A DNA stretch of 64,000 nucleotides. Source: an uncultured Nitrososphaeraceae archaeon. GTDB lineage: Archaea; Thermoproteota; Nitrososphaeria; Nitrososphaerales; Nitrososphaeraceae. Position numbers and translations under genes: made by a program. The notes below the pieces were generated by a model, which did not search any database, was not told the DNA's origin, and saw only the letters and a list, made by a program, of their open reading frames with translations. Location: positions 1 to 64,000 of the forward strand of contig CAVSMN010000008.1 of assembly GCA_963729045.1 (NCBI GenBank). Direction: 5' to 3'. Shown here in pieces: positions 35,554 to 63,918 of the stretch; within the stretch, counting starts at the first letter, position 1, and the number at the start of each line of letters is the position of its first letter.

Positions 35554-35692
35554 GCCGGGGTACCGAAGCTAGGTAAGCAATCAAAAAATCCAGCCCTAAA
35601 AGGGGTCAGCCTCGAGATCTAATAAATGAGGAAGTAAAGGATAGATAGCTGATGTCCTTCCGGACTCGTGGGTTCGAGTCCCACTCCCGGCG
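35554..35692 (+). tRNA. tRNA-Ser(CGA) with a D-loop intron (35576-35600) and an anticodon-loop intron (~35617-35646)
   Basis: Acceptor GCCGGGG/TCCCGGC plus G; anticodon stem TCAGC/GCTGA with CT-CGA-G; variable arm GTCC-TTCC-GGAC; T-arm GTGGG-TTCGAGT-CCCAC; BHB TAGG-TA^A...CCTA-AA^A. Confidence 0.9.
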
Positions 35693-36045
35693 CCTTAGTC
35701 GTGGATTCATACGAAGATTTTATTAACTTAAAGAAGACAAATAAAATTGATAATTTGCAAAACTCGCAGATCAGTCACAGACATTTTCAATCAATGCAAG
35801 AGATGAAGCAATAAGAGAGATAATTGAAGAATCCTGAATAGGTACTTCGTATATCAGTCCTAAATCAAATCTATAATCAAAAACCGTTCCTTAATGTAAT
35901 TGATTGTGGTAGACTCATCCTCGACTAATGATATCTTAATCTTAGAATAAAATTAGACCACGTAGAAGATTACTCATTCATAAGTGCATGTGATCTTACT
36001 ACAGTTTTGATGTCCTTTCTAAATTTTCTCATATTAGTGTCACTA

Positions 36046-36330
36046 TTATATAGTATTTGTATCAATACTGTTGACTTTCAAAGCATTTATTTCAAAAAGA
36101 ATTGTTTTAGTGCTTGGTCTTGTGATATTAAAGAGTAATCTAACTAGTCGACTTGTTTTTACGCCTTGAGCGGGTCTCCAGGCTTCTGCTTCTTCCACAG
36201 AGCCAACTAATATTGATATGACAACAAACATTGTGGCGATTCCAATACCAACTACTACAGGGATAAATTGTGGGTGTGACCTTACATTCTCTAATACCAT
36301 TTTGATCCTGTTCATTGCTTTAATTACCAA
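36046..36330 (-). CDS. Small exported or membrane peptide
   Basis: Hydrophobic stretch ending in the AxA-type site EAEA|WR. Confidence 0.45.
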   Translation of the reverse strand: MVIKAMNRIKMVLENVRSHPQFIPVVVGIGIATMFVVISILVGSVEEAEAWRPAQGVKTSRLVRLLFNITRPSTKTILFEINALKVNSIDTNTI

Positions 36331-36365
36331 TATTGATCATGGATGAGATAATATGCTACCAACTT

Positions 36366-36852
36366 TTGAAAAAAAGTATTAATCTATGGCTTATCCATAG
36401 CAATTTTAGCTGGTTTAACATTTGTTATAGGTCAGATATTAGTCGAATATGGCAACAATGTATTAACTCAACAACAACAACAACAAAATAATCAAACATC
36501 AATACCACATAATGCAAAAGGACACGAGTCTCATCAAGTAATTATATTCCAAAATTCTAGTGATGGTTTAAAATATACAGGAATGGTTACGTTCAGTCTT
36601 TCAAAGCCTGCAGATGTTATTTCATTTGATGAGATTACGGACGGGCAGCCTACAAACGCAACCAAAAAGATTTGGGAAGTCGGAGACAAGAAATTTGTAC
36701 CCAGCACACTTTTAAAAAATGTAACTGAGGGATCTATAAGCTTTAATGGAAGCGGCATACAAGCACACAGTACTTCAGGAGATAGATATACCGGTTCCTT
36801 TACTCTCAATGATGCCCCTATTAGCAACAATAATAGTAGTGGGATTCAATAG
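36366..36852 (+). CDS. Secreted hypothetical protein (poly-Q linker, HNAKGHESH motif)
   Basis: The frame of ORF 36583-36852 extends upstream through a signal peptide (VLIYGLSIAILAGLTFVIG); the TTG start is offset by one extra A in an A7 run. Confidence 0.6.
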
Positions 36853-37268
36853 ACTTTATCGTAATAATACATAATAAATACTAAATAGGAAGCCGCCCGC
36901 TTAGGGCGGAGCTATCATCTTCCGCAGTCCATATCATATGAAGAACCAGTAATATATACTATATCAACCCTCGGATTGGTTTTTACTGCCTTAAAACAAT
37001 TTTGTCTTATAAATAAATTACAACATATATAGAATATATTTGGATAATTATAGATAATTTTGTGTCTCAAAGGACACATATTACTTTCTTTGAAAATTAA
37101 AATCAAATAGATAAATGAAAAGAATATATTATTTATTCTTCAATAATACCTAATGCAATTGGATTTAAAAGCGTCGAACTGATTCAAACTGAACTATGGA
37201 AATTTCAACGATCAAGGATTACTAATTGTAAACCAACGACTTTACCAAATGAGATAAAATAGGTTGGA

Positions 37269-37514
37269 CTATATTCTAACCCATGTCATCATGCATTTAA
37301 CCAAAAACCTGTGACAATGATTTTCATCTTTGCAATGGCAGAGGAGTGTAACGGTGTCATATTTTGATAATATGTCAGAGCGTTGGGACGGAGGTTGCTG
37401 TTGTTGATGTTGCTCTTCATGATTTGTATCGGAATTATTAGTCCTATCAAGCGAAGCCAAGTTATCTAAGGCCTTTAATGCTAAAGGATTGTTTAGTATT
37501 TCCAATATGTCCAT
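37269..37514 (-). pseudogene. Fragment ending in a DUF488-like C-terminal motif
   Basis: TVTLLCHCKDENHCHR; N-terminal part looks unrelated or decayed. Confidence 0.45.
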
Positions 37515-37849
37515 ACGAGAGTATTCATACTTCTTCTTACCCTCATGCTAATTGTGAAGGATGAGCATGAATGAGGGACTCCCATTACCTATGCTGTCCA
37601 ATAAGCGGATGAAGAGGTGTTATCATTTACGTTCGCAACTAGTGAAGGTGACATGGTAAATATTGTTGTAATTCAGGCGCCGCTCTTATCGGCGCCAAAG
37701 TCTATGGATAGGCCATCATGCTAATGGACGACTTGATGCAAAGTTAATGATAAGCAACAATCCTTTCAGACAGAAGAATAAACATGACCTTTCTGTTATT
37801 GACAGAATAGAGGAACGAATGCATTCTTTGTTGTCAGACATAAGAAGTA

Positions 37850-38131
37850 TCATTGTTCCTCTAATGGCTCCCTCGAATATTTTACCTTAAGAACCAACAT
37901 ACAAATATTTAATGATGCTCCAATGGAGTTGCCAATAACAATAACAATATCTGCTCTTCCAATTCCATAAATAACCCATAGAGAAAGACCAGCAATCAAG
38001 ACAAGAAGAAAACGAATCGATACATCCTCCGTATCTTTTGTGTTTAATGCTTTTTTAATCTGCGGGACCGTACTTGCAACTGTGAACACAGTGGCCAAAA
38101 GGCCGATGAATGTTATTAGAAGATCTACCAT
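37850..38131 (-). CDS. SemiSWEET / PQ-loop transporter
   Basis: 3 TM, VPQIKK..TKDTEDVS, LWVIYG, GN. Confidence 0.85.
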   Translation of the reverse strand: MVDLLITFIGLLATVFTVASTVPQIKKALNTKDTEDVSIRFLLVLIAGLSLWVIYGIGRADIVIVIGNSIGASLNICMLVLKVKYSREPLEEQ

Positions 38132-38376
38132 CTATTTTACGTTGTATAACTTATCTTTTATTGACTATAATATTTGCTATTTAACTTGAGTAACGCTACA
38201 CGGCATAAGCATCATATTAACGTTATATCGCCACAAAAGTGCGATTCAATTATCAATAGAACGTATCATAAAGGACAAATATTGTCTTGAAGCCCACCGA
38301 GAGAGCAAATCTTTAGACCTCGAATAATAAAATCCCATACACGACGCTTTTTAAAGTATCGTAAACATTCAAGATT

Positions 38377-38808
38377 GTGAGAGGATATCAAAAACTTACA
38401 ATAATAACAGCAGCATTAGGATTAGTAATCCCTTTTATCGGACTTTTCTTGTATTTTTTTATCAATAGTGTCATAGGAATTCCTATTCTAGGTCTATTTT
38501 TAGGAGGAGCTTTACTTGTTGCCATTGCAATCATAGCAATAAATATTGGTGCAATCGTAACAGCTTTTAAAGTTAAAAACACAAAGATTGTTGGTATAAC
38601 TTTAATCGCTTGCGGAATATTGCTATTTTTGGTTATCCAATTTTTTGCCATCCCAAGTCTAGTATTATATATAATAGCAGGAGTTCTTGCGTTGAGGGAA
38701 AAAAATTCAACAAATGTAAAGGCAACCTTTTCCTGTGAAACATGTGGACAAACTTTTGACTCAATACAGGATTTAAAGGAACATTCTAGCATCACACACT
38801 ATAAGTAA
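38377..38808 (+). CDS. Membrane protein with C-terminal C2H2 zinc finger
   Basis: Four hydrophobic segments, then FSCETCGQTFDSIQDLKEHSSITH. Confidence 0.75.
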   Translation: MRGYQKLTIITAALGLVIPFIGLFLYFFINSVIGIPILGLFLGGALLVAIAIIAINIGAIVTAFKVKNTKIVGITLIACGILLFLVIQFFAIPSLVLYIIAGVLALREKNSTNVKATFSCETCGQTFDSIQDLKEHSSITHYK

Positions 38809-38999
38809 TTACTAAACACTCTATTGCTATAGCCAATAGGAAGACTCTTCTATTATTGAAATTTCTCCTCTTAACAACACAATGTTTGGTATTCTTTGTT
38901 GTGATAACGGAATTGAAAAAGATAATAAGTATATAGATATTTACAAACAGAGTAAAAATTAATTGGTAAGAAGATAGATTGAATATTAATTACTAATAC

Positions 39000-39360
39000 T
39001 ATATTAAGTTTTGTCATTCTAAATGGCATGGTAAGAATATCTCTGTCTTTTATTACTGTTATTTCTAATGTTGCTGTAGGGTAAATATTATTTTGGTGTT
39101 GTTGTGACTAATACAATTTTTTGGTTTGGCTTTTCATTATGTATTATTTTAACAACATCTAGTATAGAAGGATTACGCAGATGAGTATCAAGTATTATGG
39201 CGTCATATGGACTATTCTTTTTCTTAATATCAAGAAAGCAGTCCAAGGTTTTTTCAGAACTGCTTGCTATTTCGATATTTATAAATAATAAAGATAAATA
39301 AGATTCAAAGCATTTAAATTAACTAGTTTTCAGATTCTGTAATCAAAATTTGTATTTTCT
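39000..39360 (-). pseudogene. Decayed response-regulator receiver
   Basis: Minus strand reads KIQILITESEN*...EIASSSEKTLDCFLDIKKKNSPYDAIILDTHLRNPSILDVVKI with stops; boundaries approximate. Confidence 0.55.
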
Positions 39361-40489
39361 CTAATTCTTTTTCTTCTGAAGATTGAGAATATTATATTTG
39401 TTTATTTTGAGGGGTTTTGACACGCATTATATATCAACTGGAATAGAATAATAGAGTCACCATAACTTATATCATCATGTTTTAATTAATTTTTAAAATT
39501 TTTAATCATTTAAGATGATTTACTAAAAAACCAAATCAGATAAAATATGGAAATGGATTTGTTTAAAGTTATATGGTTGACTTTAAGTAATGATTTTAAT
39601 GGTGATGTAGATATTCAATAATGCTTTATAACTTAGATAAGTTAAAAGAGGATTATGTAACTGTATGGTTTCTTTATTTAAATGTAGTTATTGTAATGAG
39701 ATGAAAAGTTTTACAGATAAAGATGTAACATTTAAAGAAAATATATGTATTTATTGCGGAAATGAGAAAAAGAAGAATAAGTTAGTAAAAAATAATTAAA
39801 AAAGTTAAGATATTAAGATGTAGGATAATTGTAGATATTAATGTATAGATATATTATACTATAATATAATTGATTTACTTTTATTATATTGAAACTACTG
39901 ATTTTGTTATTTAGATATATTGAGAAAGGTATCTTTATTCTTTTTTGAGATATATTTTACATTTGTTATCACTTATTTATTCATATATTTGAGAATTCTC
40001 TTTCCCATAAACTCATATCTTATTGATAGATAATAATAGCAGCAAATTTGTAGGCTCTATCTTTACTAAAAGCAGTAAACTTGACATAGATTAACTGTTT
40101 TAACTCTTCTTTTTTGAGAAACTAGTTTATGTTTTTTTCAAGTTCAGGTAGTTGTTGATTGTAGTAGATTTTTACTTTAGTTATAATTTCTTTGGTATGA
40201 AGAATTATTTAATATTTTTTTATGTAATAATAAAAAAAAATTATTGTAAATATAGCCTAGGAAGCACTAACAGTTTGTATCTTATACATGTATGAATTTA
40301 ACTGACTACTTATCAATAATAAATTGAATATAGAGAGAGATGGTTAAGTATTTTGTAAATGCTTGAGGATTATTAGCTTTAGCACAGAGTAAACAACTCA
40401 CAAAACACTAGATTGGATTATAAGGGTATGACTATTTATAGAAATTATTTTAAGTTTGATACACTTATTTTATAATAAAAAAAGAGTGG

Positions 40490-41700
40490 CTGAAGATTTT
40501 AAAATATTAATGGTTTGTAATTGTATATATCTTTATGCAGGGAGGTGTTGGTAGCTATATGTACAATTTGGTTAAATCATTGCATTTAAAAGGCTTAGAG
40601 GGCATAGTAGTATCTGGTTCAGCAGGTTCGGGAGAGCATAAGGGAATCTCACTTAATAATTACAATAATTGAGAACTATTATAGAAATTTATAAAAGAGA
40701 TTGAGTGGGATATAGTACATATATAACATGAGTTTGGATTATATGGTTTTTTTCTGAATATTTTACTCTCTTACAAAGCATAGATAGAACTTGATGAATT
40801 CTACAATAAATGTAAAACTCCTATAGTAACTACTTTTCATATATCCATGTATAGTAGACAATGGATAAGATTGATAAATATAAAAGAAAGAGGTAAAGAC
40901 AAAGATTTTCTAAGGCTTTATTCACTTTACAAAATATGGCGACACTTTATTAATTATTCTTCTATGCATAGGATTAACAAGTATTTTATGTCTAAGAGAG
41001 TTTTATGGATTAGTTCTCTCAAATTATATGAAAGAACTAATTATAGAAAGAAAATACTATATCATAAATAGTACAACACATTTTGATAGTGATACAAGAA
41101 GAAATGAAGAAAGAAAGAGATTGCATATTTCACAAAAAGGAAGATTTGTTTTAGATTAAGGATTTATCACTAATATTAAAGGATGGGATATAATAAGAAA
41201 AATAAAAATGTGTAGGGTTGGGAGATATGTAGTAAACTATTCAAAGAACTTTTATAACAACGAAAAAAATGGATTTTGAATTTCAAGATGATAAAAGAAT
41301 CAATTTAAATAAAAGGTATCTCTCAGAAGAAGAACTTTCATTATTGTTTTTTTTTTGTGACGCAGTTTTATTACCATACAAGGTATGCTCTGGTTCTGGC
41401 ATCATGTATGATGGAACAAGAGATGGAAAAACATTTGTGGGTTCGTATATGGAATTTTTTTAAGAGTATTTATCAATTAATTTTGACATTGTAACAAAGA
41501 TAAATATGAGGAGTTTTGAGCAAGTTTTCGTTCAAATGGATAGGAATTATCTTTTTTTTAAATATAGAATTGAAGAGTTTAGAAAAAACTTAATTTGGCA
41601 CAATATAGCAAAACAACATATCTCTATATACAAAATCATAACAAGAGTAGAATTGACAGAATCGCTTTTAGCTGTCGAAATAATTCGTAAAACTCAATAA
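40490..41700 (+). pseudogene. Decayed GT4-family glycosyltransferase
   Basis: KILMV...GGVGSYMYNLVKSL...DIVHI*HEFGLYG...CDAVLLPYKVCSGSGIMYD...WHNIAKQH; many stops and frameshifts. Confidence 0.75.
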
Positions 41701-41796
41701 GTGATATAAAAATAAAAATGGATTATATAATATTTCCATACTATTTTGTCATAGTGCATTTAGAACACGGTTTATTGCAAATGCAGGAATTTGAAA

Positions 41797-43613
41797 ATGA
41801 GTAGAAAAAATATACTTGTTCTTGGAATAAATGATGGACATGACGCTGGAGATGCTTTGGTTTAAAACGGGCAGGTAATAATTGCTGTCCATGAAGAGCA
41901 GATAAACAATGATAAAGGTTTCAGAGGAATACATGAAAAGGCTATTCCAAAGGTTTTTGACATTTCTCATACAAATCCATCAGATTTAAATTTGATTGCC
42001 TTGGCTAGTTACTATCCACCAGGAGGAGAAAATCTAAAAGCATTATCGACCAAGTCATTGATACGACTCAGCCCATTACTCCATTCGGATTCTTTTATCA
42101 AATTTTACTTAAGGTATATCAAAAACAAAAGGAACTTTGAAAAGTTTGAAAAAATTTTTAAAAGTTTAGGAATAAATCCTAACCAGATTGAAACAACAAT
42201 AATTGAACATCAACTTGCTCATGCTTCTGCTGCATATAGAAGTTCTCCATTTGGATATAGCAAAGAAGATATACTAATTGTCACTGCTGATGGTTCAGGC
42301 GACGGATTATCTTCATCTGTAAACATAGGTATTACGAATAAAACGGACAGCAGCGTGGTCCTACAAAAGGAAACTATAGGAGATATAAAAAGAATTGCTT
42401 CTTCATCCTATTACGATTCGATAGGCAATGCATTTTATACAGAAATAACAAAATATTTGGGACTAAAACCATGGGAACATGAAAGTAAGGTGATGGGTCT
42501 AGCACCATACGATAAACCAGAATACTGTATAGACAAAAAGAGGAAAATGATAAAAATAAATGCATCTCATAATCTAAGAATTAAAAACACCATAGGTCCC
42601 TTTGGATAGGAGGGTCTGCGATACAATGTAGATTAAGTAAATTATTGCAGAATCAAAGATTTGATAATGTTGTTGCTGCTGCACAACAACATCTCGAAGA
42701 GTTGATGAAAAAATGGGTTAGTAATGCTGTTAAAAAAACAGGTATCAGGAAAATTGTTTGTGCAGGTGGAATTTTTTTGAATGTAAAAATGAATATGATT
42801 CTAAGAAAGTTTTTGCAAAGTTTTTCCTCTAGCAATGATGAAAATGGAATGATTTTTGTATATCCTGCTCCTGACGATAGCGGGCTTCCAGTCAGATGTG
42901 ATATGGAAGGGTATTATCAGTATTGTAAAAGAGACGGAAAGGAACCATTAAGTGTTAAGGTTGAACATACCTACTATAGACATTCCAATAGCAACGATGA
43001 GATTAAAGACATAATAAAAAAATGCAATGAAAAAAGTAATAACTTTAATTCTAATGGTATCAATGGTAAGTTCAATTACGATTACTATGATGACATTGAT
43101 GGTATGGCGGGTGAACTTCTTTCAAAGGGTAAAGTTCTTGCTAGGTGTACAAGTGGTGGTGAATGGGGTCTCTGAGCTCTTGGAAATAGGTCTATTATTG
43201 CAGATCCTCAAGATAGTAATACGATACACAAAATTAACTTTGCTATCAAACAGAGGGATTTTTGGATGTCTTTTGCTCAGTCTATGCTGTATGAAAGAAG
43301 CTAGTATTAGATTGTTGATCTCTAATATGCACCATACATGATAATGGCATTTGATTTGACAGAAAAGGGACAGATACTCTTACCAGCTGCGATACCTCCA
43401 TATGATAAGACTTGTCGATCTCATAATATCAAAAAGCAATGCCATAGAGGCTATTACAAAATCATTAAAACATTAGAAAAAATAACAGGGATTGCATCTG
43501 TCTTAAATATTTCATTTAATCTACATGTATATCCTATTTTGGATTCCCCTGATGTAAAACTTTGGACTTTGGAGAACTCAAGGTTAGACGGACTTTTTTT
43601 GGATACTATTTAG
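41797..43613 (+). pseudogene. Decayed NodU/CmcH-family carbamoyltransferase
   Basis: LGINDGHDAG..LV*, EHQLAHASAAY, DGSGD, ESKVMGLAPY, AGGIFLNVKMN, EWGL*ALGNRSIIADP, LNISFNLH. Confidence 0.85.
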
Positions 43614-43944
43614 TCACCAATTCATAATATTTGTAAAGAATTGATAAATAAAGTCTTACTAGTCTCTATATCAAATGTATAAACATAAAATAAGAAAGTT
43701 GATGTTAATTTACTAAGTACTTTTCTGTCATTATAGATATAATCATCTCATTTAAAGATGAATTTGAGCAGAAAAACTATGGTTACAAACTTTCTGATGT
43801 AAATCTTAAATAGAATCAGATTAATGATTTTATTAGTTCTCTAATGTGTAAATTCCAGCAAGATCTCATATATATCAAGTAGTAAATAATCTGACATACT
43901 TTTATTGGTCGGATTTGATCTATCTCATCTTAGTGTGAGATAGT

Positions 43945-44226
43945 ATGAATTCATATTATAATGATGATGTGGATGCTGGCTATGTCAAATTCACTGATAA
44001 TAGAATAGTAAAAACAGAACCTATAAGCAAAAATATCTATGTTGATTTGGATAAAAACAACAAGCTAGTAGGAGTAGAGGTATTAGGTATGAAAAATAAT
44101 GTCAGACATAATGTCATGGGTAGACAGATAGAGAATAGTTTATCTAATTTAGAATCTGATAGATTCAAAGAATTTGCCATTGATGAATATATTATAGAAT
44201 TAAAGAATAAATTTGGAAAGTTTTAG
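43945..44226 (+). CDS. DUF2283-like protein
   Basis: YNDDVDAGYVKF...IYVDLDKNNKLVGVEVL. Confidence 0.7.
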   Translation: MNSYYNDDVDAGYVKFTDNRIVKTEPISKNIYVDLDKNNKLVGVEVLGMKNNVRHNVMGRQIENSLSNLESDRFKEFAIDEYIIELKNKFGKF

Positions 44227-44323
44227 TAAAACAGAACAGGATTAGATAGGAAATAATTTACTTATTCATTACCTCTCTAAATTACTACATGCTAATTTAT
44301 ATACGAAGAAATATCCTCAGAAT

Positions 44324-44777
44324 TTAAAAATAAAAATATGAAAAATTAACCTGTTCACTAGTGCTATTGGCTGTTCCTATGGTTGTTTGATTGAATGGGA
44401 CAGTGGTCTTATTCGCTATAACGGTGGTTGCGGGTCCAGTTTTTGGTACCATTGTCTTATTCTCTATATTAGATAGATTTCCAGTTTGAGAAGATATAGT
44501 CTGGTTTTGCAGTGGTTGTAATTGAGATTGATCTTTTACTGGCTCAGATGTTTGATTAACAGTTACTGTTGTTTGTTCTACTTGGACTGTAGTTTGATTT
44601 GCAATAACCGTTTGAGGACTAACAGAAATGCTTGCCATCGTCTGATTTTCAGGAATGACTACTGATGATGATTGGTTTTGGCTTGGATATTGATTTTGAG
44701 CAAGTTCTGGTTCGTCATTCACTACAGATGAAATTAATAATGGAACGAGAGATTAGGAATATGAATGTATTTCTCAT
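44324..44777 (-). CDS. Secreted Q/T/N-rich low-complexity protein (frameshifted or truncated)
   Basis: Many NQT/NKT sequons; signal-like start near 44777 is out of frame. Confidence 0.5.
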
Positions 44778-44905
44778 GGTTAGTTTGTGACAAACATTGC
44801 TTAAATACATAGCCAATACATAGTAATCCAGAAGAAACTATAAACTATAATCTATAATGAAATATTGAGAAAATAGAGAAAGCATGATTAATTTATCTTT
44901 CTCTT

Positions 44906-51955: not shown

Positions 51956-52000
51956 CAACCTGTCAAAATTAAGGTTTATGATAGTTTATGATTATGATAT

Positions 52001-53222: not shown

Positions 53223-53451
53223 GTTAAATACAATATATACATATTGACATAATCTTTTTTCAACCATAGTTCAAAATATTTAGAATTTATTAACTAGAAC
53301 CAAAGTATTTGAATGGAGATTCTCATTAAGAACTTCGATCATGGTAACGAAAAAAATCTTTTCTTCTTTATTTTATCTAACAGAATATCTAGTATTCTTA
53401 ATGTAATTGCTATAAAAAGATTTATAATTTCATCAAGTCTAAGTCAGGCTA

Positions 53452-55160: not shown

Positions 55161-55246
55161 TGGATAATAACCGAGTTTAAGGGATGCCCAAGGAATCCCA
55201 TCGTCATGGTCTATTAGTTATTGTATCCTCAGCAATGCAATCGATA

Positions 55247-55286
55247 ATTATAGTCAAATTTGAACCATATCCCCACGCGCCCAAAC
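55247..55286 (+). repeat. Family B intergenic repeat
   Basis: ATTATAGTCAAATTTGAACCATATCCCCACGCGCCCAAAC aligns with 59926-59965. Confidence 0.7.
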
Positions 55287-55456
55287 TCAGTGATCTCTGA
55301 AATGGTAAATATACAATGACTCGATTGGGTTCGCGTTACATTTGTGTCGGACAAATGAACTGTTAAATTTCTTTCTACTTGACTATTATTTTTTCAAAAT
55401 CAAATCTTTATTTGCTCCGGAAAATTATATTTAAATCAAGAATAACAATAGGATAT

Positions 55457-55846
55457 ATGGCTCTTTCTGAATCATTTGTAAACCAGCATGTGAAAAATTG
55501 GATTGATGGCTGGAATAACCACGATATAAAAACAGTATTATCTATGTATTCGGAAAATATTGAATTCTCTAGCCCTAAAGTCAAAGTTGTATTTCCAGAT
55601 CGCACCTCATCAAAAATATCTAACCAAAAAGAATTAGAGGAATATTGGTCAAAAGCCTTGAAAAATAACTTTCCTTCACTGAATTTTACGCCCAAAGAAG
55701 TATTGATACAAGAAAACAAGATTCTACTTGAATACTATGCAACATTGGATGGTAAACATAGAACATCTGTTATTGAGAAATTTGAATTTCAAGATGGATT
55801 GATTACAAAGTCCAGTGTATTTTATGGTTCTGAGGAAACTATTTGA
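55457..55846 (+). CDS. SnoaL-like / NTF2 family protein
   Basis: WIDGWNNHDIKTVLSMYSENIEFSSP...YWSKAL; ATG at 55457. Confidence 0.82.
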   Translation: MALSESFVNQHVKNWIDGWNNHDIKTVLSMYSENIEFSSPKVKVVFPDRTSSKISNQKELEEYWSKALKNNFPSLNFTPKEVLIQENKILLEYYATLDGKHRTSVIEKFEFQDGLITKSSVFYGSEETI

Positions 55847-55947
55847 TGGTGTAACAATACAATCAAATCCTAATATGTCTCAATTAGATGATTCACCACA
55901 AGCGTCAGGTTTAAAGTTAAAAAATAACTCAGCCTGACAATAGAATA

Positions 55948-56709
55948 TCAACTATCGATACTTCCTACCCTGAGGTTTAGATCCCATTTTACTAGTTTTA
56001 TTTCATCATCCTTTCCCCACAAATTCTTCAAATCTTCTTTGACTACACTCAATGGGTCGCATTTATTTTCCGCATAGAATCTTTTTACTGCTGACCACGT
56101 TTGCATGTAATCAAAAAGATTATTAAGATTCCAGTCTACTTTTATCTCAAATTTGGGAACCTCAATTTCCTTAAAAGGGAACGGTATTGTTTTGTATTCT
56201 TCTTTTACAAATTTGACTTCTTTTGGCCAATAGTTTCCGAGAATATCTCCGCCAACATTGAGTCTTTCACTTATTTTGTCAATTTCAGGGCTAATTTTTT
56301 GCATTCCATAGGCCCATACTGCTATTATTCCACTACTTCGGCTTACTCGTCTGGCTTCTCGATAAAACATCTCAAAGTCAAACCAGTGAACTGCCATCGC
56401 TACAGTGATTAGGTTAACAGAGTTGTTTTGGATATTGGGTTTCTCTGCAGGAAACACCTCATAGTTGATGTTGTCCCGATCAAATGCGTTATCAATTTGA
56501 TTCTTGCTTGCATCGCTTGCTATCACCTTTTTAAAGTATTTGCAAAGGCTTATGGCGGCCTGTCCGTTTCCTGTCGCACAATCCCAAGCCAGATCCTTAA
56601 CAGGAGTAATCTCATTTAGAAATTTAAAAAGATCCTCTGGATATTTTGGTCTAGCATAAGAATATTCTCTGGATTTTGAGGAAAAATGGTTGACAGTACC
56701 TGGTGTCAT
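55948..56709 (-). CDS. Class I SAM-dependent methyltransferase
   Basis: YSYARPKYP, AWDCATGNGQA, ITVAMAVHWFD. Confidence 0.9.
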   Translation of the reverse strand: MTPGTVNHFSSKSREYSYARPKYPEDLFKFLNEITPVKDLAWDCATGNGQAAISLCKYFKKVIASDASKNQIDNAFDRDNINYEVFPAEKPNIQNNSVNLITVAMAVHWFDFEMFYREARRVSRSSGIIAVWAYGMQKISPEIDKISERLNVGGDILGNYWPKEVKFVKEEYKTIPFPFKEIEVPKFEIKVDWNLNNLFDYMQTWSAVKRFYAENKCDPLSVVKEDLKNLWGKDDEIKLVKWDLNLRVGSIDS

Positions 56710-57073
56710 GCATTTAATTTATTTTATTTATCAAAAAACCTTTTTGTCTAGGATTGATCATTGTGAAATAGATTCCTTTGATATTTATCCTCCATAATTT
56801 TCAATAAATAACCGTCCGAATCGTCCAATCGTCCTATAATACTTGACACAGTAAAGAAATGAGCACAATTGTGCTAAATAACCGAATATTTGCAATTGAC
56901 GATACTATTGAGTTTCCAGATAACCGTCAATGATTTAATGGTGCCGGATTAGACAAGAGGCGCTCTGTATTGAAATTTGATGTATGTTGCTTTCTCTTAA
57001 ATCATTAGATCTTTGTAATGGTTGACTTTGATTTTGTTTACATATGAATGTACCGGCCATCACTTTTAACGTT

Positions 57074-57118
57074 GATTATATTCAACCTTGAATCACATCC
57101 CCACGGATGTATTTAGCA
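57074..57118 (+). repeat. Family B intergenic repeat
   Basis: GATTATATTCAACCTTGAATCACATCCCCACGGATGTATTTAGCA. Confidence 0.8.
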
Positions 57119-57134
57119 TTATGTGAAGAGAAAC

Positions 57135-57620
57135 TTAATCAAAAATGAATCTCCAGTTATAATTACTTTCTAACAAATGAACTATAACTGGATCAAACTG
57201 TATAGACTTTTTAAAATCCTCCATCGTGGATGTTCCTAGTTCTCTGAAAAAGTTTTCCAATCCTGCAGGAGTGTATGTTACAAGTAGTTTGCCCTGATCA
57301 TTTCCAATTTTTCTATAAGAATGACTTTTATCTTTTTCAAATCTTAACACCGTATCCTTATTTCCTTCTAGAGTTTCTTTTCCGTATCTAAAGGAAAAAT
57401 TGCCTTCAATCACGTGCATTACCAATGCTTCGTTTCCGTGCTTGTGTAAAGGTACTTCTGACTCTTCACCTGGAGGAAAGGTAATTTCAATTATCGAATA
57501 TTTATTTTGAGTCTGATTTCCAGATACAAGAATTTTATAAATTATTCCATTTAGAATATATTGTTCAATCGATTTGTAGTCTTGGGAAAAGACTTCATTA
57601 TCCTTTTCATCGCTCATCAT
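57135..57620 (-). CDS. Cupin domain protein
   Basis: PLHKH..E..HVIEG...HSY; TPAGLENFF. Confidence 0.85.
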   Translation of the reverse strand: MMSDEKDNEVFSQDYKSIEQYILNGIIYKILVSGNQTQNKYSIIEITFPPGEESEVPLHKHGNEALVMHVIEGNFSFRYGKETLEGNKDTVLRFEKDKSHSYRKIGNDQGKLLVTYTPAGLENFFRELGTSTMEDFKKSIQFDPVIVHLLESNYNWRFIFD

Positions 57621-57826
57621 TAATCATTACTTATTAGGGTAAATTTATTAATATTTAAATAATTTCCAAATCCTTGATTAACACCACTTAAATTATTAGA
57701 ATGTATGCATGCTACTGCTACAATTCAAATAATTTGTATGGGTGAAACTGACAGATTATTAAACAGGCCATAAAGTCTTATAAGAATTCAAGCACGATGA
57801 TTTATTTTTCAATGGATATAATACCC

Positions 57827-57872
57827 GATTATATTCAATCTTGAACCGTATCCCCACAGATGTATTCAAGCA
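57827..57872 (+). repeat. Family B intergenic repeat
   Basis: GATTATATTCAATCTTGAACCGTATCCCCACAGATGTATTCAAGCA. Confidence 0.8.
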
Positions 57873-58024
57873 AAGAAATTCAGAAATTGGCTAGAGTTCT
57901 ACTCTGTATTATTATTGACCATATATGATACATCTGATCTGATGTATTTCGTAGTTTTTGAGTTATTAATTTTTCCAATTATGGAGAGCACTTGTCGCAG
58001 CATAATGTACACTCATTATGTCCA

Positions 58025-59284
58025 TTATTTGACATAAAGAACACTTGTGGAATTAGGCTTTAATTGATCAATGGTAATTATTGTCTTGTCCTGCTCGTCA
58101 TAAACCACATCTTCTTTTACTAACTGTAGTACCTTGTCTACTTTAAAAGAGATTTCTTCAATCAACTCATTGCCTGATTTTATAGTTATCTTTTGACCTG
58201 TAATTGCAATATTAATTTTTTTTATCTTTCTTATTCGTTGGTATAAATCGAAGAAAGTTGTCTTCCATGAAAAGGGAATTTTATTGAACAGATGTAAAAT
58301 TTGATTCCACTGTTCAAACAAGTTTTTTCTAGTAATAGAATCATGATTCCAATCATAAAAATAATGATGATAGTGGTTTAGAATACCTAGAGGTGTTCTT
58401 TGAACCATGGAATAAGAGATGGTATTGGATATCCATTTTACAAATGTTTGTGAAGATTCTTGTTCTTTTTCTGCATTTTTATTGGAATTTGATATAGGAT
58501 TTATTTTTAGCCTTCTAGGGATATATAGCATTATTCCCTGACTATGCTTGTTATTATAGTAATCGACATTAGACATGATAAAGGGAATAATAAATCCCAC
58601 ATTGGCAAATTTTTTTAAAAGTTTACTTGCAAAATATTTTTTAAAATAACTGGGAACGTATGATGATCTAAAAAATCTATGGTAGTTTGATTGTCCATAG
58701 ATAGGAATCATGCCAAGACTTGATAGGAGATTTAGATTGTGCGTAGAAAAGTCATCAAATGGAGGAACAAACAAAACTGGATTAATATCAAAGGATTTTC
58801 TTATTATATCCCTTCCAATATTTACATAGGATTCAAAGCCTATCTTGTTGTTCTTTTCATAACCATCAGTATTTAGTGACCTGTAATAATGAGTAAATGT
58901 ATCTTTTATAGTTCTGTTTATATCTTCACTCTTTCCGTCAATCTGCTGACTAAACTCTCCTCGACCATCAATTAAATCATGAGTTACACCATGTTGAATA
59001 ATCTCAATCTTACTGTGTCTGATCTTTTCTTTTAAAAATGTGCATAATTCTTCATTGTTCTCAATGGAATGATGTTCTGGAGAGTTCCTGAAATCAGGTG
59101 GGACACAAGCATCATTAATTGTCTTTTGATAAGGTATCACAGATAGACTTACTTTGAATTGATTATTCCATGCGTTAGAATATATTGATTCGAGCATATT
59201 GCTTTTTGTAAAAAAATTAGTATCATCATCTCGAATTAAAATAGGAATTTTACCGTTGGGTCCTAGTAGTGGAGTAATCGTCAT
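58025..59284 (-). CDS. Polysaccharide deacetylase-like (DUF2334/CE4-type) protein
   Basis: LIRDDD, SLSVIP, EIIQHGVTH, GEF, FVPPFD. Confidence 0.75.
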   Translation of the reverse strand: MTITPLLGPNGKIPILIRDDDTNFFTKSNMLESIYSNAWNNQFKVSLSVIPYQKTINDACVPPDFRNSPEHHSIENNEELCTFLKEKIRHSKIEIIQHGVTHDLIDGRGEFSQQIDGKSEDINRTIKDTFTHYYRSLNTDGYEKNNKIGFESYVNIGRDIIRKSFDINPVLFVPPFDDFSTHNLNLLSSLGMIPIYGQSNYHRFFRSSYVPSYFKKYFASKLLKKFANVGFIIPFIMSNVDYYNNKHSQGIMLYIPRRLKINPISNSNKNAEKEQESSQTFVKWISNTISYSMVQRTPLGILNHYHHYFYDWNHDSITRKNLFEQWNQILHLFNKIPFSWKTTFFDLYQRIRKIKKINIAITGQKITIKSGNELIEEISFKVDKVLQLVKEDVVYDEQDKTIITIDQLKPNSTSVLYVK

Positions 59285-59512
59285 CTATTGCTAAAGAAAT
59301 CATTAATGCTTTTAAATCGTCCATTATCATCATACTCTAATGGACCATGTTTATATCAGATAATCATATCATATCATCAGTTTTTGAGGGCTATCTATTT
59401 TTACTTCCTACAAGTTGCTGAAATAAATTAAAAATGAATAGTTAAGGAAATGACATATCTCATAAATCAATATGTCTAGTATGCGATGTTAAATTAAGGA
59501 ATTTTTAAAAAA

Positions 59513-59788
59513 ATGAATTCTAATCATGTAAAGCGAATTGATTTCACTAAATCGGTAGAATATGATGATAAGGAGGATGTTTATTATGTGAAATCGGTTA
59601 CTTCAGGAGAGAGATATAAGGTTAATAAATTAAAGGATAATAACCATTGGTTTTGCACATGTAAAGGATATTTGTATTCGGCTGGAAACCCCAAGAAATG
59701 CAAACATACTCAAAGAATTAGAGTTATTGATCAGTTGTATAAAAAATATGCTGATAAGATTACAAACTTCGAATTAAAAGATAGATAA
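59513..59788 (+). CDS. Small SWIM zinc-finger protein
   Basis: YYVKSVTSGERYKV...WFCTCKGY...KCKH (CxC-xn-CxH). Confidence 0.8.
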   Translation: MNSNHVKRIDFTKSVEYDDKEDVYYVKSVTSGERYKVNKLKDNNHWFCTCKGYLYSAGNPKKCKHTQRIRVIDQLYKKYADKITNFELKDR

Positions 59789-59874
59789 TTGATCTTCATT
59801 AATGTGAACGTTATAGACGTCTATTAATTTTTTATATGGAGATTCTGCCTCGGTTACATAACTAAACCTTACAA

Positions 59875-60067
59875 AAGATCTATAGTTGATTCATGATTTA
59901 GATAGGTATTGTTTTTTTGCACAGGATTATAATCAACCTTGAACCGTATCCCCACGGGCCCGGACCTTGAAAGATCTATAGTTAATTCATGATTTAGATA
60001 GACATTGTTTTTTTGCACAGGATTATATTCAACCTTGAACCGTATCCCCACAGGGCCCGGACCTTGA
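59875..60067 (+). repeat. Two tandem ~96-bp units containing the family B core
   Basis: AAGATCTATAGTT...GCACAGGATTATA(A/T)TCAACCTTGAACCGTATCCCCAC(A)GGGCCCGGACCTTGA at 59875-59970 and 59971-60067. Confidence 0.92.
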
Positions 60068-60133
60068 TTAGTCAACCAGTTGAAAGAGTAGGAGGCTTTT
60101 TTTGTTGGAACCCACGTCAGAAAGACGTAGATC

Positions 60134-60154
60134 CGAGTCCCACTCCCGGCGCCT
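60134..60154 (+). repeat. attR-like perfect duplicate of the tRNA-Ser(CGA) 3' end
   Basis: 21/21 identity to 35675-35695. Confidence 0.9.
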
Positions 60155-60216
60155 AAAACAGGGAATCATACCATATTTTTATATAATTTGACGAATATCA
60201 TCAAGTTATTAGTAAA

Positions 60217-60479
60217 TTGTCAGATGTGGTCGATCAAATAACTTTAGGATTATCTAGACCTTATTTTCGTAACATCCTAAAGAAATTACGTGAAAACAAC
60301 CAAGAAAATGCATACACAATATGTAAACATATTCTAACTGAACAAGCCGAATTTAATATCAAGAATAGCACAAAGGAGGGAAAATTAGGATATTGGTACG
60401 GCTCTCAAACTTTTTTGACGATAGAAAAAGATACCAAGACATGATCAAAGAAGATATTTTTTTTATATTGATTGACTGA
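60217..60479 (+). pseudogene. Truncated N-terminus of a tyrosine recombinase/integrase
   Basis: ENAYTICKHILTEQAEFNIKNSTKEGK continues after a frameshift as IRILVRLSNFFDDRKRYQDMIKEDI, resembling the N-terminal domain of Nitrososphaera-type integrases as I recall them; lies 60 bp from the att repeat; no catalytic domain present. Confidence 0.6.
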
Positions 60480-60637
60480 TTGTGCCAATATTTGTCTATA
60501 TTATGAAATACTTACAGGTATAAAAATACTAAATTTCAAAAAGAAAGTTTGTTTATTCTCATATTGAAATGGTAACTTTTCGTTGGTCAACTTTAAAATG
60601 TATTTTTTTAGTTCGGTTTTCATTTGTTTTTATAAAA

Positions 60638-62319
60638 TTATTTTTTTAAAGGTAAACTAAAACTAAATGTAGCACCATTACCGTCCCTATTGTTTTCAGC
60701 CCAAATCTTTCCGCCATGAGCTTCTATTATGCTTTTTGATATATACAAACCCAAACCAGTTCCAATAAATGAATTTGAAACAAATTTTTTAAATAAATAT
60801 GGCATTATTTCCAGATCAATTCCTAATCCTGTATCTATTACGGCAATTACGACTTCGCTATTATTTTTTTTCTCCATTGTTACAGCTATCGATCCTTTTG
60901 TTGTAAACTTTATTGCATTATTTACAAGATTTGACAATACTTGAGTTATTCTATTTTTGTCTCCTTTTACAACTACGTGACCCTTTGGTGACATCTTTAA
61001 TTTACCATCGTCATTTTCTTTATTGTTAAAGTCATTTTTACATACAAATAATACATTTTCTTTCTTTTTTTCCATATCTATTGTACAATCATTTATTGTA
61101 TTTGATATGACGTCAAGAAGATCAAATTCTCCTATGTCAAGCTTCAATTCATTACTTTCAATTTTAGTTACATCTAGAATATCGTCGGTCAGTTTTTGTA
61201 ACCTTCTTGCATTTCTATATATGATTGACACACCACGTTCTATTTCTTTCATATCAACATGTTTTTTATTTTGAAAATCTCCATTAAGCATTCCTGAAAG
61301 CCCGATAATTGGTTGAATCGGTGTTCTCAATTCGTGAGCAGAAATGTTTAAGAATTGATCTTTCATCTTTTCTGCTTCTTTGACTTTTATATATTGATTT
61401 CGTATAAGAGCATTGCTTTTTTTTAAATTCTTGGTATAGTGTATACTAGATAAAGCAAGTGCTATGATGTTGACAAAATATCCCGCATCTTTAATCACAT
61501 GAGCTAGGTTATGCGCAGTATCAAAAGAAACGGCAGAAAAAGACATTATGATTTGAGCGAATATGTCAATTATGAGATAAATAAGAATACCTTTATAAAG
61601 AACGTCTTTTTTTAGGTAAAGTCGTTTTTTATAGAAAAAGAACAAAGCAAGGACAAACAATATCAGAGGTGGAATCTCATAGGGCCTATGAACGGAGTAA
61701 TCATCTAAAACAGAGGCAGGAAAGACCAAAAATAGTGAGCTCAAAGCAATACTAGATGCCAATACACCTAAAATTATTATATATAGAATGGAGTTGTCTA
61801 TTATATTTTTTTTAGATTTTTAGAGGGGTTGATCTTTTGATCAGTATCATACTGTTTATCAAGATTGACAAGGTCTTCTTCTTCTTCTTTAGATGTGTAT
61901 GAATATTTCACTACTGCAATTAAGAGCATAGCGCTGAGAAAAAATCTTCCTGCAAACCATGTTTGAGGAATGAAATACTTCAAGAAATCAATATTTTCAA
62001 TTAGTGTTATTGATACTATTACGTGTAACATATCAATTAATCCGCTAATTAGAAATCCGATACCAACAAAAAGGCTAAAATTGTCCTTTAAAACTCTTGC
62101 ACGCAGAATATAATAGAAAGCTAATGCTGAAACTAAAATAACTGCAAATAATTCAATATAAAAATGATGGATTTCTGATGCCACCCACAAAAAAGGATCA
62201 AAAGATATGATAGTTAGTATTATGAGAGGTATCATAGGTAAGAGCGTAAATTTGACTAATACTCTAAAGAATACTGAATTATTGTTATGGAATAAACTTT
62301 TATGAATCGTTATAAACAG
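60638..62319 (-). CDS. MASE3-like membrane histidine kinase, frameshift near 61800
   Basis: Paralog of 3840-5557; SAHELRTPIQP, QVLSNLVNNAIKF, DTGLGI, GTGLGL; start uncertain (frame open to ~62320, first ATG at 62235). Confidence 0.85.
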
Positions 62320-62335
62320 AACTTATTTCTATTGA

Positions 62336-63514
62336 TCAATCATTTATTATTGATTTTATTTTTAATATGAAATCTTCTGGTTCTATGGGCTTTCTAATGA
62401 TCTCTTTCATGTTTATTCCAGGAACCGACTCTATTAATTCGTGTACAACATCCAGTGCTGATATCAATAAAATTTTCGCATAGGGATTTATTGCTCTTAG
62501 TTTATGATAAAGCTGAATACCATTTATTCCAGGCATTCGAATGTCCATCAGAATCAAATTATAAAAGTAAGGGCTTTTCTCTGTAAAATGTGTAAAAGCT
62601 TCAATTGAATTTGAAAAAGCCTTGACTTTATAACCTTGTCTATTTAAAAGGGTAGTAAAGGTGTAAAGAATATCTTCTTCATCGTCTATTATTAGAATAT
62701 TGATAATGGTGTTAGCAATAGGTTTTGATAAATTATTTTTCTTTAGTGTATTTTGTATTTCTCTGTAGTCAAGTATAGTTTTATTCCTTTGAATTTCATC
62801 TAGTATACTTACAGAATACAAACAATCAAAATTTTTAACGGATTTGATGTTATTAAAGCCATTATTTTGTAGATTTACCTTATGTATAGCATAGTTGTTA
62901 ATGAATTGAGATTTACTAACTCTATAATATAGTTTTTCCCCAATCCACAATTCTTTTGAAGACACAAAATTATTCATTTTTGAACATTCATTAATAACTG
63001 ATCCAAACAAGTCAACTTCATTAGAATTATCAGACATTGCTATTTCCACCTCTCCATAATCCATACAGATTCTATAATTGATAGGCTGCAATTCATTCTC
63101 GCATAACTGACTATCTAGTATACTACTGGATGAAAGCATTCTCATTCCACATTCAAATACTTCATGAAAGGCCGGCTCGTTGGTTTCGTCACAAGTTTTG
63201 GGAAAATAGAAAAACAGACTATCCCCAATATTTTTAATAACCTTTCCATTGCAATTATTGATTACAGATGACATTGTATTAAGAAATAACGAATAATATT
63301 TTCTCAATTTAGGTGGACTAGATATTTTTGAGGTTTCATTAGTTGAATTAACAATATCAATAATGCCTATACAATATTGCTGAGTATAGTTAATGAATTT
63401 TATTTGATCATTATCATCTGTAAGATTAGCATTTGTAAGATTATCAGGTCTTGATCTAACATAATTATAGGCATCTTTATCATAATCTATACGATTAGAA
63501 CTTAATACTTCCAA
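62336..63514 (-). CDS. Class III cyclase-REC fusion (intact, 392 aa)
   Basis: CIGIIDIVNST, KVIKNIGD, DLFGSVINECSKM, then ILIIDDE, LMDIRMPG, ISAL, RKP. Confidence 0.9.
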   Translation of the reverse strand: MEVLSSNRIDYDKDAYNYVRSRPDNLTNANLTDDNDQIKFINYTQQYCIGIIDIVNSTNETSKISSPPKLRKYYSLFLNTMSSVINNCNGKVIKNIGDSLFFYFPKTCDETNEPAFHEVFECGMRMLSSSSILDSQLCENELQPINYRICMDYGEVEIAMSDNSNEVDLFGSVINECSKMNNFVSSKELWIGEKLYYRVSKSQFINNYAIHKVNLQNNGFNNIKSVKNFDCLYSVSILDEIQRNKTILDYREIQNTLKKNNLSKPIANTIINILIIDDEEDILYTFTTLLNRQGYKVKAFSNSIEAFTHFTEKSPYFYNLILMDIRMPGINGIQLYHKLRAINPYAKILLISALDVVHELIESVPGINMKEIIRKPIEPEDFILKIKSIIND

Positions 63515-63871
63515 TTATCTGCAAATCCTACTATATATCACACGGAACTGCTATATATTGTTACATATTGTTATTTGTTCACAATAACAAACTAAGGATT
63601 TGTAATTAAATTGTAGTAGTCTTGGGCTCCAGCAATACAATCTCACACAAACTGATATATTTTTTAACTTTAGTTTATCATGTATTTTCTAAAATTTTCG
63701 ATTATAAGTTGAAGTCATCGTTATTTCTACCCTGGCATTCCTGTATTCTAAGAATAATTTTGATTTAGTATCAATATATCTGAATTTGGATGGAGTGACC
63801 ATCATCATGTCCACTAAGAAGACCTAATTCTTGAATCATTCTTTCAAATTGTAAAATTTGAAGTATCGAAT

Positions 63872-63918
63872 TTGGAACCCCGTCTGAAAGCCGTAGATTC
63901 GAGTCCCAACTTCGTCTG
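63872..63918 (+). repeat. att-like junction repeat
   Basis: TTGGAACCC-CGTCTGAAAGCCGTAGATTCGAGTCCCA matches 60105-60142 (TTGGAACCCACGTCAGAAAGACGTAGATCCGAGTCCCA); the right side AACTTCGTCTG matches the family A end at 52104-52114. Confidence 0.8.

Follow-up and report, generated by a model that had tools for sequence, protein, structure and literature searches.

Recurrent T-loop sites part small gene modules behind a tRNA-Ser(CGA) gene in a Candidatus Nitrosocosmicus genome

Soil ammonia-oxidising archaea are thought to adapt mostly via accessory genes, and the route by which they acquire them is poorly known. We took up this question at one locus of a Nitrososphaeraceae genome, in which a tRNA-Ser(CGA) gene is followed by a long series of small gene modules parted by recurrent sites, and asked how such a series could have been built. 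The window (the whole stretch of DNA analysed here) comprises the first 64 kb of contig C8 (100.4 kb) in a genome of 2.85 Mb (label G000) with 22 contigs, approximately 33% G+C and an assembly that is 87% complete. The genus is named in the records as Candidatus Nitrosocosmicus; 34 of its genomes were compared, and the relatives are referred to by G-numbers. A preliminary description of the window had proposed that small modules were captured repeatedly and site-specifically at this one locus. This proposal was supported by the enrichment of the sites and by the coincidence of module boundaries with them, and we consider it probable that the array arose by site-specific accretion of integrative elements and integrase-less cassettes at tRNA-Ser(CGA).

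The anchor of the array is a forward-strand tRNA-Ser(CGA) gene at 35554-35694 with two putative introns, at 35579-35602 in the D arm and at 35618-35647 after the anticodon. When both stretches were spliced out in silico, ARAGORN called a class II tRNA-Ser(cga) of 87 nt with a long variable arm, and the orthologous tRNA and its upstream flank were found in relatives. In the unspliced window, no tRNA was called by ARAGORN (even with the intron option) or by Rfam at gathering thresholds, and no Rfam family was matched anywhere in the window. It was noted that the D-arm intron has a non-canonical position and that ARAGORN called just 32 tRNAs in the whole genome, so other multi-intron tRNAs were probably overlooked too. 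Genes of this two-intron kind escape standard tRNA finders, and the anchor of such islands stays hidden. The T arm reads GTGGG-TTCGAGT-CCCAC, and the T loop together with the 3' end of the gene (35673-35694) constitutes the primary attachment site.

We found that the core TTCGAGTCCC, which corresponds to the tRNA T loop plus stem, occurs exactly on the forward strand at 35673 (within the tRNA), 47662, 47811, 52092 and 63898, with a one-mismatch version TCCGAGTCCC at 60132 on the same strand. A further one-mismatch match, at 54050 on the reverse strand, sits within an open reading frame (ORF) and is probably a chance occurrence. With up to one mismatch, seven core matches were present in the window compared to 1.30 expected, a number reached by 0 of 100 shuffles. 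The recurrence of the T-arm core in one orientation, which the preliminary description had placed at 47662, 47811, 52092, 60134 and 63898, was confirmed by this count, and its degenerate copy near 49842 was recovered as TTCGAATTCC at 49842, with a left arm common to site 52092.

Across the whole genome (2.85 Mb), the exact 10-mer core has eight copies, six of which are on C8, all on the forward strand. A full-site profile (E < 0.01) returned 18 hits genome-wide. Thirteen of these were on C8 and represent the tRNA and 12 sites, which all lie on the forward strand, in the same orientation as the tRNA, at contig positions 47.6-96.5 kb. The other five hits were on C16 (two, reverse strand), C5, C10 and the end of contig C9, the last of which merely duplicates C8:96.5 kb. 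The sites at ~73160, ~77430, ~90320 and ~96510 and the one on C5 were recovered by a first profile built without them, and the site at contig position 67479 was added by BLAST. As to whether the repeats are enriched at this locus or scattered genome-wide, 12 of the 17 non-tRNA profile hits fell within 2% of the genome and on one strand. At least 12 same-strand sites of approximately 60 nt therefore follow the tRNA over 61 kb, to contig position 96.5 kb, and the array continues past the window end, about twice as far as had been seen at first.

We sought to characterize the anatomy of these sites, each of which consists of a hairpin-bearing left arm, the T-loop core and a right arm, approximately 60 nt in total. 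The left arms fall into three mutually unrelated families, namely i (GGAACCCACGTCyGAAAGACGTAGA), ii (GATGACTCCACGATTATACGGTATGGw) and iii (TTAGATTCCCTGTTTTTATGACAGGGC). Each family holds an inverted repeat, a hairpin of approximately 19 nt, that ends 1-3 nt before the core. In families i, ii and iii (18, 21 and 21 distinct copies), 82%, 90% and 84% of the hairpin cells were paired, compared to 4-61% in a slid-partner control. The left arms were also considered as coding sequence for an integrase N-terminus, a candidate that was rejected on account of in-frame stop codons, the start of the integrase approximately 100 nt downstream, and 1-nt indels among copies.

Two types of right arm were distinguished. 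The tRNA type copies the tRNA 3' end, as ACTCCCGGCGCC or ACCTCCGGCGCC, or as ACTCCCCGCGC where it derives from a second tRNA-Ser; the AAAC type has the non-tRNA sequence AAACTTCGTCTGG, after which comes one of several additional arm families. Some right arms precede a T run. Over all arrays examined, 27 sites had tRNA-type arms, 27 had AAAC arms, and the remaining 20 of the 74 were placed in a decayed 'other' class. All six pairings of left-arm family and right-arm type occur (6/6), and the arms combine freely in this sense. The 22-mer of core plus AAAC arm was found with up to three mismatches in 18 of the 34 genus genomes, with no hits for a reversed control. Among 185,579 species genomes, its exact form was found in 15 stretches, titled Ca. 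Nitrosocosmicus, Nitrososphaeraceae or Nitrososphaerales only, and it was absent from the viral contigs searched; the motif is confined to the Nitrosocosmicus lineage among the genomes searched. One lone AAAC-type site was encountered at a third locus of G012, with no tRNA (ARAGORN) and no integrase within +/-10 kb. The AAAC arm as the 3' end of another tRNA was considered and rejected, as no such tRNA was among the exact-core copies of the analysed genome and the arm, by inspection only, cannot pair as an acceptor stem.

The comparison of the locus across relatives used downstream sequence from twelve of them. The 2.9 kb upstream of and including the tRNA are 71-95% identical across the genus, and the same-orientation site layout follows tRNA-Ser(CGA) in all eight of the eight relatives with enough downstream sequence. 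One site was counted in G012 and in G022, two in G015 and in G008, three in G020, five in G024, six in G007 and ten, within 44 kb, in G041. The right flank, C8:99154-100279, lies 20, 30 and 46 kb from the tRNA in G012, G015 and G024, and its conservation in these three genomes delimits a variable region of 63 kb here (35.7 to 99.2 kb).

Four relatives record the locus without its tRNA-proximal part. We found that C8:60126-60460 matches the sequence directly after the tRNA in G020 (92%), G002 (86%) and G008 (84%), and that C8:60126-60428 does so in G018 (71%). Because the sequence after 60132 abuts the tRNA in these genomes, the 24.4 kb at 35695-60131 represent an insertion. It is bounded by a repeat, in which 60132-60153 and the tRNA 3' end at 35673-35694 are identical at 21 of 22 positions, and a far-boundary repeat of the tRNA 3' end was also present in G012, G015, G020, G024, G007, G008 and G041. 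The locus is thus polymorphic among relatives for an occupied and an empty site, with the breakpoints at the repeat (G020, G002, G008 and G018). Whether module boundaries in related genomes coincide with the repeats had been put forward as a check, and they do, both in these four relatives after 60132 and in module starts at the core. It was noted that the tRNA 3' end variants ACTCCC and ACCTCC do not track the relatedness of the flanks. G022, with a 94% flank, shares its variant with G015, G024 and G007, with flanks of 71-79%, a mismatch that would follow from replacement of the tRNA 3' end by elements.

In G020:C1, a different tRNA-Ser, whose T loop is TTCGAAT and whose 3' end is ACTCCCCGCGC, precedes a second array built of the same site families. 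In the analysed genome, a tRNA-Ser(GCT) ends contig C19 (47418-47502), and the sites at C16:119866 and 124185 (reverse strand) and at C5:~950 carry its 3' end, so a second array is probable here as well, split by the assembly.

An associated question is which recombinase serves these sites. Our search for the integrase family, which covered the genus Candidatus Nitrosocosmicus, detected its N-terminal fragment in 31 of the 34 genomes, and open frames of 431-509 aa stand directly after the tRNA in G022, G012, G013, G002 and G008. In G012, the stretch from the tRNA to the first site forms an intact integrative element of 14.8 kb. Its integrase (491 aa; PF00589, 2.6e-8) is followed by a PrimPol/D5_N/DUF5906 replication protein and by SIR2-like, AAA+subtilase, OLD-TOPRIM and Fic genes, and the element closes with a type-i site bearing the tRNA 3' end. 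An integrase homologue was found within 1.5 kb downstream of 12 of the 27 tRNA-type arms, compared to 0 of the 27 AAAC arms and 0 of the 20 other arms, linking the integrase to the tRNA-type arm. When whole modules were scored, 13 of 27 tRNA-type and 3 of 26 AAAC-type modules had an integrase hit; two of those three hits lay at the next site and one beyond an undetected site. An SSV-type split integrase was considered, given that the tblastn alignments started 2 nt into the core. It was rejected, as the core frame has stops and the integrase start lies approximately 100 nt downstream, and integration does not split the integrase gene.

In the window itself, the integrase-like remnant that the preliminary description had placed beside the best-conserved site was borne out by tblastn, which matched 60229-60461 (forward strand) to residues 42-119 of the G012 integrase (E 4e-14), approximately 100 nt after the core. 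The frame there corresponds to the integrase N-terminus, and only this part of approximately 78 residues is left. A Pfam search of 53 stop-to-stop frames around three sites returned no integrase and missed the remnant. No integrase was detected on C8 by a six-frame search with Pfam PF00589/PF16795 or by tblastn with the five integrase-like ORFs of the genome. A search for an intact integrase elsewhere had been put forward as a check; none of the family was found in this assembly, in which the remnant is the sole trace. With no integrase of the family detected in an assembly that is 87% complete, the array here is probably static.

We then assessed how modules are shared among arrays. Two further copies of the dioxygenase module that starts at 63898 were found in the G041 array and one in the G020:C1 array, and its homology starts at 63872 when the left arm belongs to the same family and at 63896 or 63898 when it belongs to a different one. 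In the complete genome of G041, the two copies are 99.6% identical over 996 nt, with identity from the first core base, and stand beside a type-i and a type-iii left arm. An arsenic-type module starts at 67479 here; in G004:C5 it starts at the core behind a different left arm, and in G015 it comes immediately behind the tRNA and a truncated integrase. The major facilitator superfamily (MFS) stretch 47719-49793 is 96.1% identical to G004:C5 8517-10592, between two sites, where it follows the arsenic-type module in the reverse of the order here. Further shared blocks are 49824-51397, with 95.9% identity to a stretch of the G041 array, and 49884-51570, with 94.5% identity to a stretch of the tRNA-Ser(GCU)-type array of G020.

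Among homology blocks of at least 300 nt and at least 75% identity, which have 47 distinct ends, 10 of the 47 ends fell within -110 to +50 nt of a core compared to approximately 1.4 expected (3%), giving a binomial probability of 1.3e-6 for ends that are not fully independent. Among public sequencing runs, 20 from nine studies contain part of 47500-56500. Contigs of four runs over 44001-64000 showed joints with their ends at the sites, namely 60142>47821, 60133>52100, 52101>63910, 47757>60130, 47756>52066 and 47755>63881. With joint sides of 29-41 nt, too short to serve as evidence, and arms that are repeat families, these may be either recombinants or the module orders of related strains.

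The second repeat family described for the intergenic gaps of the window was confirmed at five forward-strand positions. These family-B boxes lie at 55247-55290 (a divergent copy), 57074-57113 and 57827-57866, and at 59921-59965 and 60017-60062 within a 97-nt tandem duplication (59921-60062); three further copies are on C16, C18 and C1. Site 60132 has a long left arm whose distal part is the box at 60017, and the same box-to-core arrangement was encountered on C16 and in G041, G022 and G004. The solitary boxes coincide with the ends of two blocks shared with relatives, 57127-57869 (89.7% identical to G020:C1) and 57827-59957 (94.1% identical to G004:C13).

In the mechanism that we propose, the T loop and 3' end of tRNA-Ser(CGA) would act as the chromosomal attachment (att) site of a lineage-specific tyrosine integrase, with strand exchange within or beside the T-loop core TTCGAG(T)CCC. 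Each integration would create a hybrid site in which the core joins the left arm brought by the incoming unit to the right arm of the former downstream sequence, and repeated events would produce the 63-kb mosaic that extends from the tRNA (35.7 kb) to the conserved right flank (contig 99.2 kb). Class I units would carry a tRNA 3' end copy with an integrase approximately 100 nt later and could enter the tRNA and rebuild it. Class II units, which start with AAACTTCGTCTGG, would hold one or a few accessory genes without an integrase and would be unable to rebuild the tRNA. Since such AAAC units would break the tRNA on entry, they would instead use internal cores as entry points and depend on an integrase acting in trans. 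The newest 24.4 kb (35695-60131) would have displaced the former tRNA-proximal integrase to 60.2 kb, where it decayed, and the remnant at 60229-60461 sits exactly where a displaced ancestral integrase of this kind is expected. This order of events, along with the chemistry and the circular intermediates that the scheme supposes, is what we infer from the arrangement of sites and modules.

Several observations weigh against this accretion reading. Only 1 of the 24 right-hand block ends fell at a core, whereas integration of a circle predicts both ends there; the others stopped either 50-300 nt short of the next core or where no site could be recognised, and the latter is also true of the duplicate in G041. 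The proximal hairpin arm thus seems to assort independently of the cargo that flanks it. Neither circular nor excised forms were found among assembled contigs, which cannot show circles. The N-terminal fragment of the integrase family was not found in G000 at E<=1e-3, which leaves activity in this genome unsupported. Many sites are decayed, as seen in the 20 of 74 with 'other' right arms. Double-sided, compensatory hairpin changes are few, with one or two sequences per pair, and no origin was found for the AAAC right arm. The mobilisation of class II units in trans is in addition conjectural.

The same evidence allows other accounts of the array to be weighed. Ordinary tandem integration alone, in which all modules entered the tRNA as integrase-bearing elements and the integrase-less ones are decay products, is a serious candidate that we consider unlikely. 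Arrays of tyrosine-recombinase elements formed by re-use of one site are known from the available text of PMC6563490. Integrase remnants follow internal sites at 60132 here and at G024 22423, G041 12552, G011 11477 and G004:C31 455, and module 1, the first behind the tRNA, is visibly decaying, with pseudogenes. Against this, an integrase lies within 1.5 kb at 0 of 27 AAAC arms. At the tRNA, an arm of this type would ruin the acceptor stem, while all tRNAs examined (16 copies) are intact. Nor would independent decay give an identical 22-mer across genomes whose flanks are 71-79% identical, and modules of 1-2 kb recur at 86-99.6% identity in differing contexts. A single event that brought in one large island, with the internal repeats made by local duplication, would account for the absence of the whole 24.4-kb block from G020, G002, G008 and G018; we regard it as highly improbable, given that modules are found separately, in other orders and arrays (MFS and arsenic-type in G004:C5, dioxygenase in G041 and G020:C1), and that the left arms come from three unrelated families.

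A dispersed small element that plays no part in site-specific recombination, such as a miniature inverted-repeat transposable element (MITE), a terminator or a tRNA-derived small-RNA gene, around which homologous recombination shuffles the neighbours, would fit the left-arm hairpins, the T run after some right arms and the ragged right-hand block ends, and the long arms (50-300 nt) could support homologous exchange. This account is improbable in our view. The copies are restricted to the arrays that follow two tRNA-Ser genes, in every case oriented with the tRNA; their core equals the tRNA T loop, and a repeat of the tRNA 3' end stands at the far boundary. The exchange points also lie at a core of 10-23 nt between unrelated arms, integrase genes adjoin the tRNA-type arms, and the window contains no Rfam family. 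To a true integron, with IntI, attI and promoterless cassettes bounded by attC, we give next to no credence. The preliminary description had spoken of an integron-like layout, and the likeness holds for the layout, with an integrase by the primary site and then small modules parted by structured sites. It does not hold for the parts, as the integrase is not of the IntI type, attC sites are not what parts the modules, and the genes occupy both strands rather than mostly promoterless single-orientation cassettes behind a common promoter. The G012 integrase matches the generic PF00589 only, and its sole NCBIfam match is the archaeal XerA model, far under the cut-off (27.1 bits compared to 220). 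The sites have a fixed 10-nt core identical to the tRNA T loop, a conserved right arm and a 19-nt hairpin instead of the 60-140-nt attC palindromes, which keep their structure rather than their sequence, as judged by site features without an attC model. Archaeal integrons use IntI and attC, and the available text of PMC9668308 makes no mention of tRNA, Thaumarchaeota or Nitrososphaeria.

The closest analogues of the array are the Dehalococcoides ssrA islands and the accretion of integrative and conjugative elements (ICE) with cis-mobilisable elements (CIME). In Dehalococcoides, according to the available text of McMurdie et al. 2011 (PMC3146451), the 3' end of a tRNA-like gene has over a dozen direct repeats in the 100 kb downstream of the gene. 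As in the arrays of the genus studied here, the insertion point is a T loop, the islands stand in tandem and an integration module lies beside attL; many islands are without an integration module and are proposed to be cis-mobilisable, and the region is the main one for strain-specific adaptive genes (PMC3146451). The ssrA islands are bacterial and involve a serine recombinase and tmRNA, whereas the present case involves an archaeon, a tyrosine recombinase and two tRNA-Ser genes. The islands are also larger and their repeat is always the gene's own 3' end, compared to many single-gene modules of 1-3 kb, three hairpin left-arm families and the conserved non-tRNA right arm AAACTTCGTCTGG here (PMC3146451). 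In ICESt1/CIME accretion (Pavlovic et al. 2004, as cited in PMC3146451), integrase-less units that keep their att sites likewise stand in tandem with integrase-bearing ones and may be moved by the neighbour's integrase. Unlike in that system, no conjugation genes were seen here, the units are more numerous and smaller, and their mobility is presumed.

Thaumarchaeal integrated elements are described in the available text of Krupovic et al. 2019 (PMC6563490) as having tyrosine integrases, 3'-distal tRNA integration, att sites with a median of 17 bp and primase-helicase genes, a class that the G012 element fits. That text reports single or pairwise insertions and, in general, the possibility of arrays; it holds no multi-site, cassette-scale array with arm families, and the name Nitrosocosmicus does not occur in it. 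The likeness to integrons, as presented in the available text of Ghaly et al. 2022 (PMC9668308), lies in a recombinase by the primary site, chained units, structured sites and a varying order. It does not extend to IntI or attC, which are lacking here, to the primary site, which is a tRNA gene, or to the core, which is a fixed sequence. As module genes lie on both strands, the modules presumably have promoters of their own. No description of such an array in Nitrosocosmicus was found in the literature, with supplements outside the search.

A further possibility, which we put forward tentatively, is an independent, genus-wide cassette system parallel to integrons, with tRNA-Ser as the landing pad, a dedicated integrase, and shared integrase-less cassettes of 1-3 kb exchanged in trans. 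Cassettes would then move from one position to another, from one of the two tRNA-Ser arrays to the other and from genome to genome. Each would have a site of approximately 60 nt composed of a structure-conserved hairpin, the T-loop core and the AAACTTCGTCTGG box. Such a pool would provide soil ammonia oxidisers with transporter, detoxification, redox and signalling genes.

On the accretion reading, the array shows how soil ammonia-oxidising archaea gather and reshuffle adaptive genes. Together with its tRNA-Ser twin, the array (63 kb here; 20-46 kb in the three relatives with both flanks) would seem to rank among the main depots of the genus for strain-specific genes. Among its cargo are genes for efflux and arsenic-type detoxification, for dioxygenase, cupin and SnoaL enzymes, and for two-component and cyclase signalling. 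The defined site offers a handle for finding such genes in metagenomes and for delimiting transfer units, and it allows an archaeal recombinase that may move integrase-less cassettes to be tested.

The array here consists of at least 12 modules of 0.14-13 kb, and the median interval between sites was 3.6 kb (47 intervals in nine arrays). Module 1 (35695-47661, 12.0 kb) has a low G+C of 0.25-0.28, is rich in pseudogenes and retains no integrase. It contains a DUF488 fragment, a SemiSWEET/PQ-loop gene, carbamoyltransferase pieces, DUF2283, a 0.8-kb multi-copy repeat, a response regulator and a 200-aa ORF, and its first ~70-130 nt match the post-tRNA flank of G004, G022 and G013. The carbamoyltransferase (41992-43613) is split over three or four ORFs and represents a pseudogene. 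The 0.8-kb repeat (44838-45643) holds overlapping opposite-strand ORFs of 93 and 108 aa and has copies on C10 and C20 (90-91%) and on C12 and C3 (~73%). The response regulator and 200-aa ORF (46231-47308) are duplicated in inverted orientation at C8:66203-67209 with 76-78% identity; the 200-aa ORF is MEDS-like in that copy, and further copies lie on C17, C5 and C10. A stretch of another contig, C10:35600-46200, shares many segments (70-91%) with module 1 (38.7-47.3 kb), has one reverse-strand site at 35619 and may be a related island at another locus.

The first site after module 1 (47615-47685, core 47662-47671) has a decayed tRNA-like right arm, ACTCCAGG, and is followed by a site at 47719-47849 (core 47811-47820) with a type-ii left arm that includes a distal box and an AAAC-type right arm; both are on the forward strand, as are the sites below. 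The 139-nt interval between their cores is an empty module of arms only. The MFS-transporter module (47821-49841, forward strand; gene at 48132-49643, Pfam MFS_1, 4e-47) ends at the degenerate site (49790-49860, core 49842-49851), which has a type-iii left arm. The next module (49852-52091, forward strand) carries a 409-aa and a 112-aa ORF with no Pfam match in either. It is closed by a site at 52043-52134 (core 52092-52101) with a type-iii left arm and an AAAC-type right arm, of which 79 nt are shared with site 67479.

The composite 8-kb module that follows (52102-60131, both strands) is divided into smaller parts by the family-B boxes. It contains a 148-aa ORF, an F420H2-quinone-reductase-like gene, SnoaL, a methyltransferase, a cupin and DUF2334 (the last three on the reverse strand), and a 91-aa ORF. 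Site 60132 (60083-60170, core 60132-60141) combines a type-i left arm with the displaced tRNA 3' end copy. Behind it, the module at 60142-63897 holds the integrase remnant and, on the reverse strand, a histidine kinase, a MASE3 sensor and an adenylate/guanylate cyclase with a receiver. The cargo named in the preliminary description (MFS, F420 reductase, SnoaL, methyltransferase, cupin, deacetylase and kinase/cyclase genes) agrees with these Pfam matches, which record DUF2334, a histidine kinase and a cyclase with receiver. The last site of the window (63847-63936, core 63898-63907), with a type-i left arm and an AAAC-type right arm, opens the dioxygenase module of approximately 1 kb, which runs beyond the window end.

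Further along the contig, the arsenic-type module from 67479 comprises a MIP channel, a low-molecular-weight phosphatase, a methyltransferase and HxlR. It is broken by a 1.6-kb repeat (C8:70219-71831) exactly where its homology to relatives stops (70225/70226); this repeat has 94% copies on C7 and C12, partial ones on C21 and C9, and no ORF of 80 aa or more. A second arsenic-type module at C11:174900-177433 is 87% identical to C8:67665-70208, with no detectable site ahead of it. A repeat of ~180 nt is present at 45906-46084 of the window, at C8:67536-67714 and at C9:149857-150034. It lies directly after the AAAC-type right arm at 67479, and likewise in G004, G044, G024 and G007, and could represent either a longer form of the right arm or a promoter region belonging to one cassette family. 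Two copies of the cupin gene, 57127-57664 and C8:74537-75073, are 88.7% identical and begin just after a family-B box and site 74499, respectively.

Elsewhere in the genome, the Thr, Arg, Lys and Ala tRNA genes are each followed by an integrase gene or pseudogene of another family (C15:72828-73803, C12:401058-402226, C14:114694-115815 and C11:165591-167014), pointing to further integrated elements. SSV-type integrases (PF16795) exist among the integrases outside this locus, and the one at the C15 locus has an in-frame TGA.

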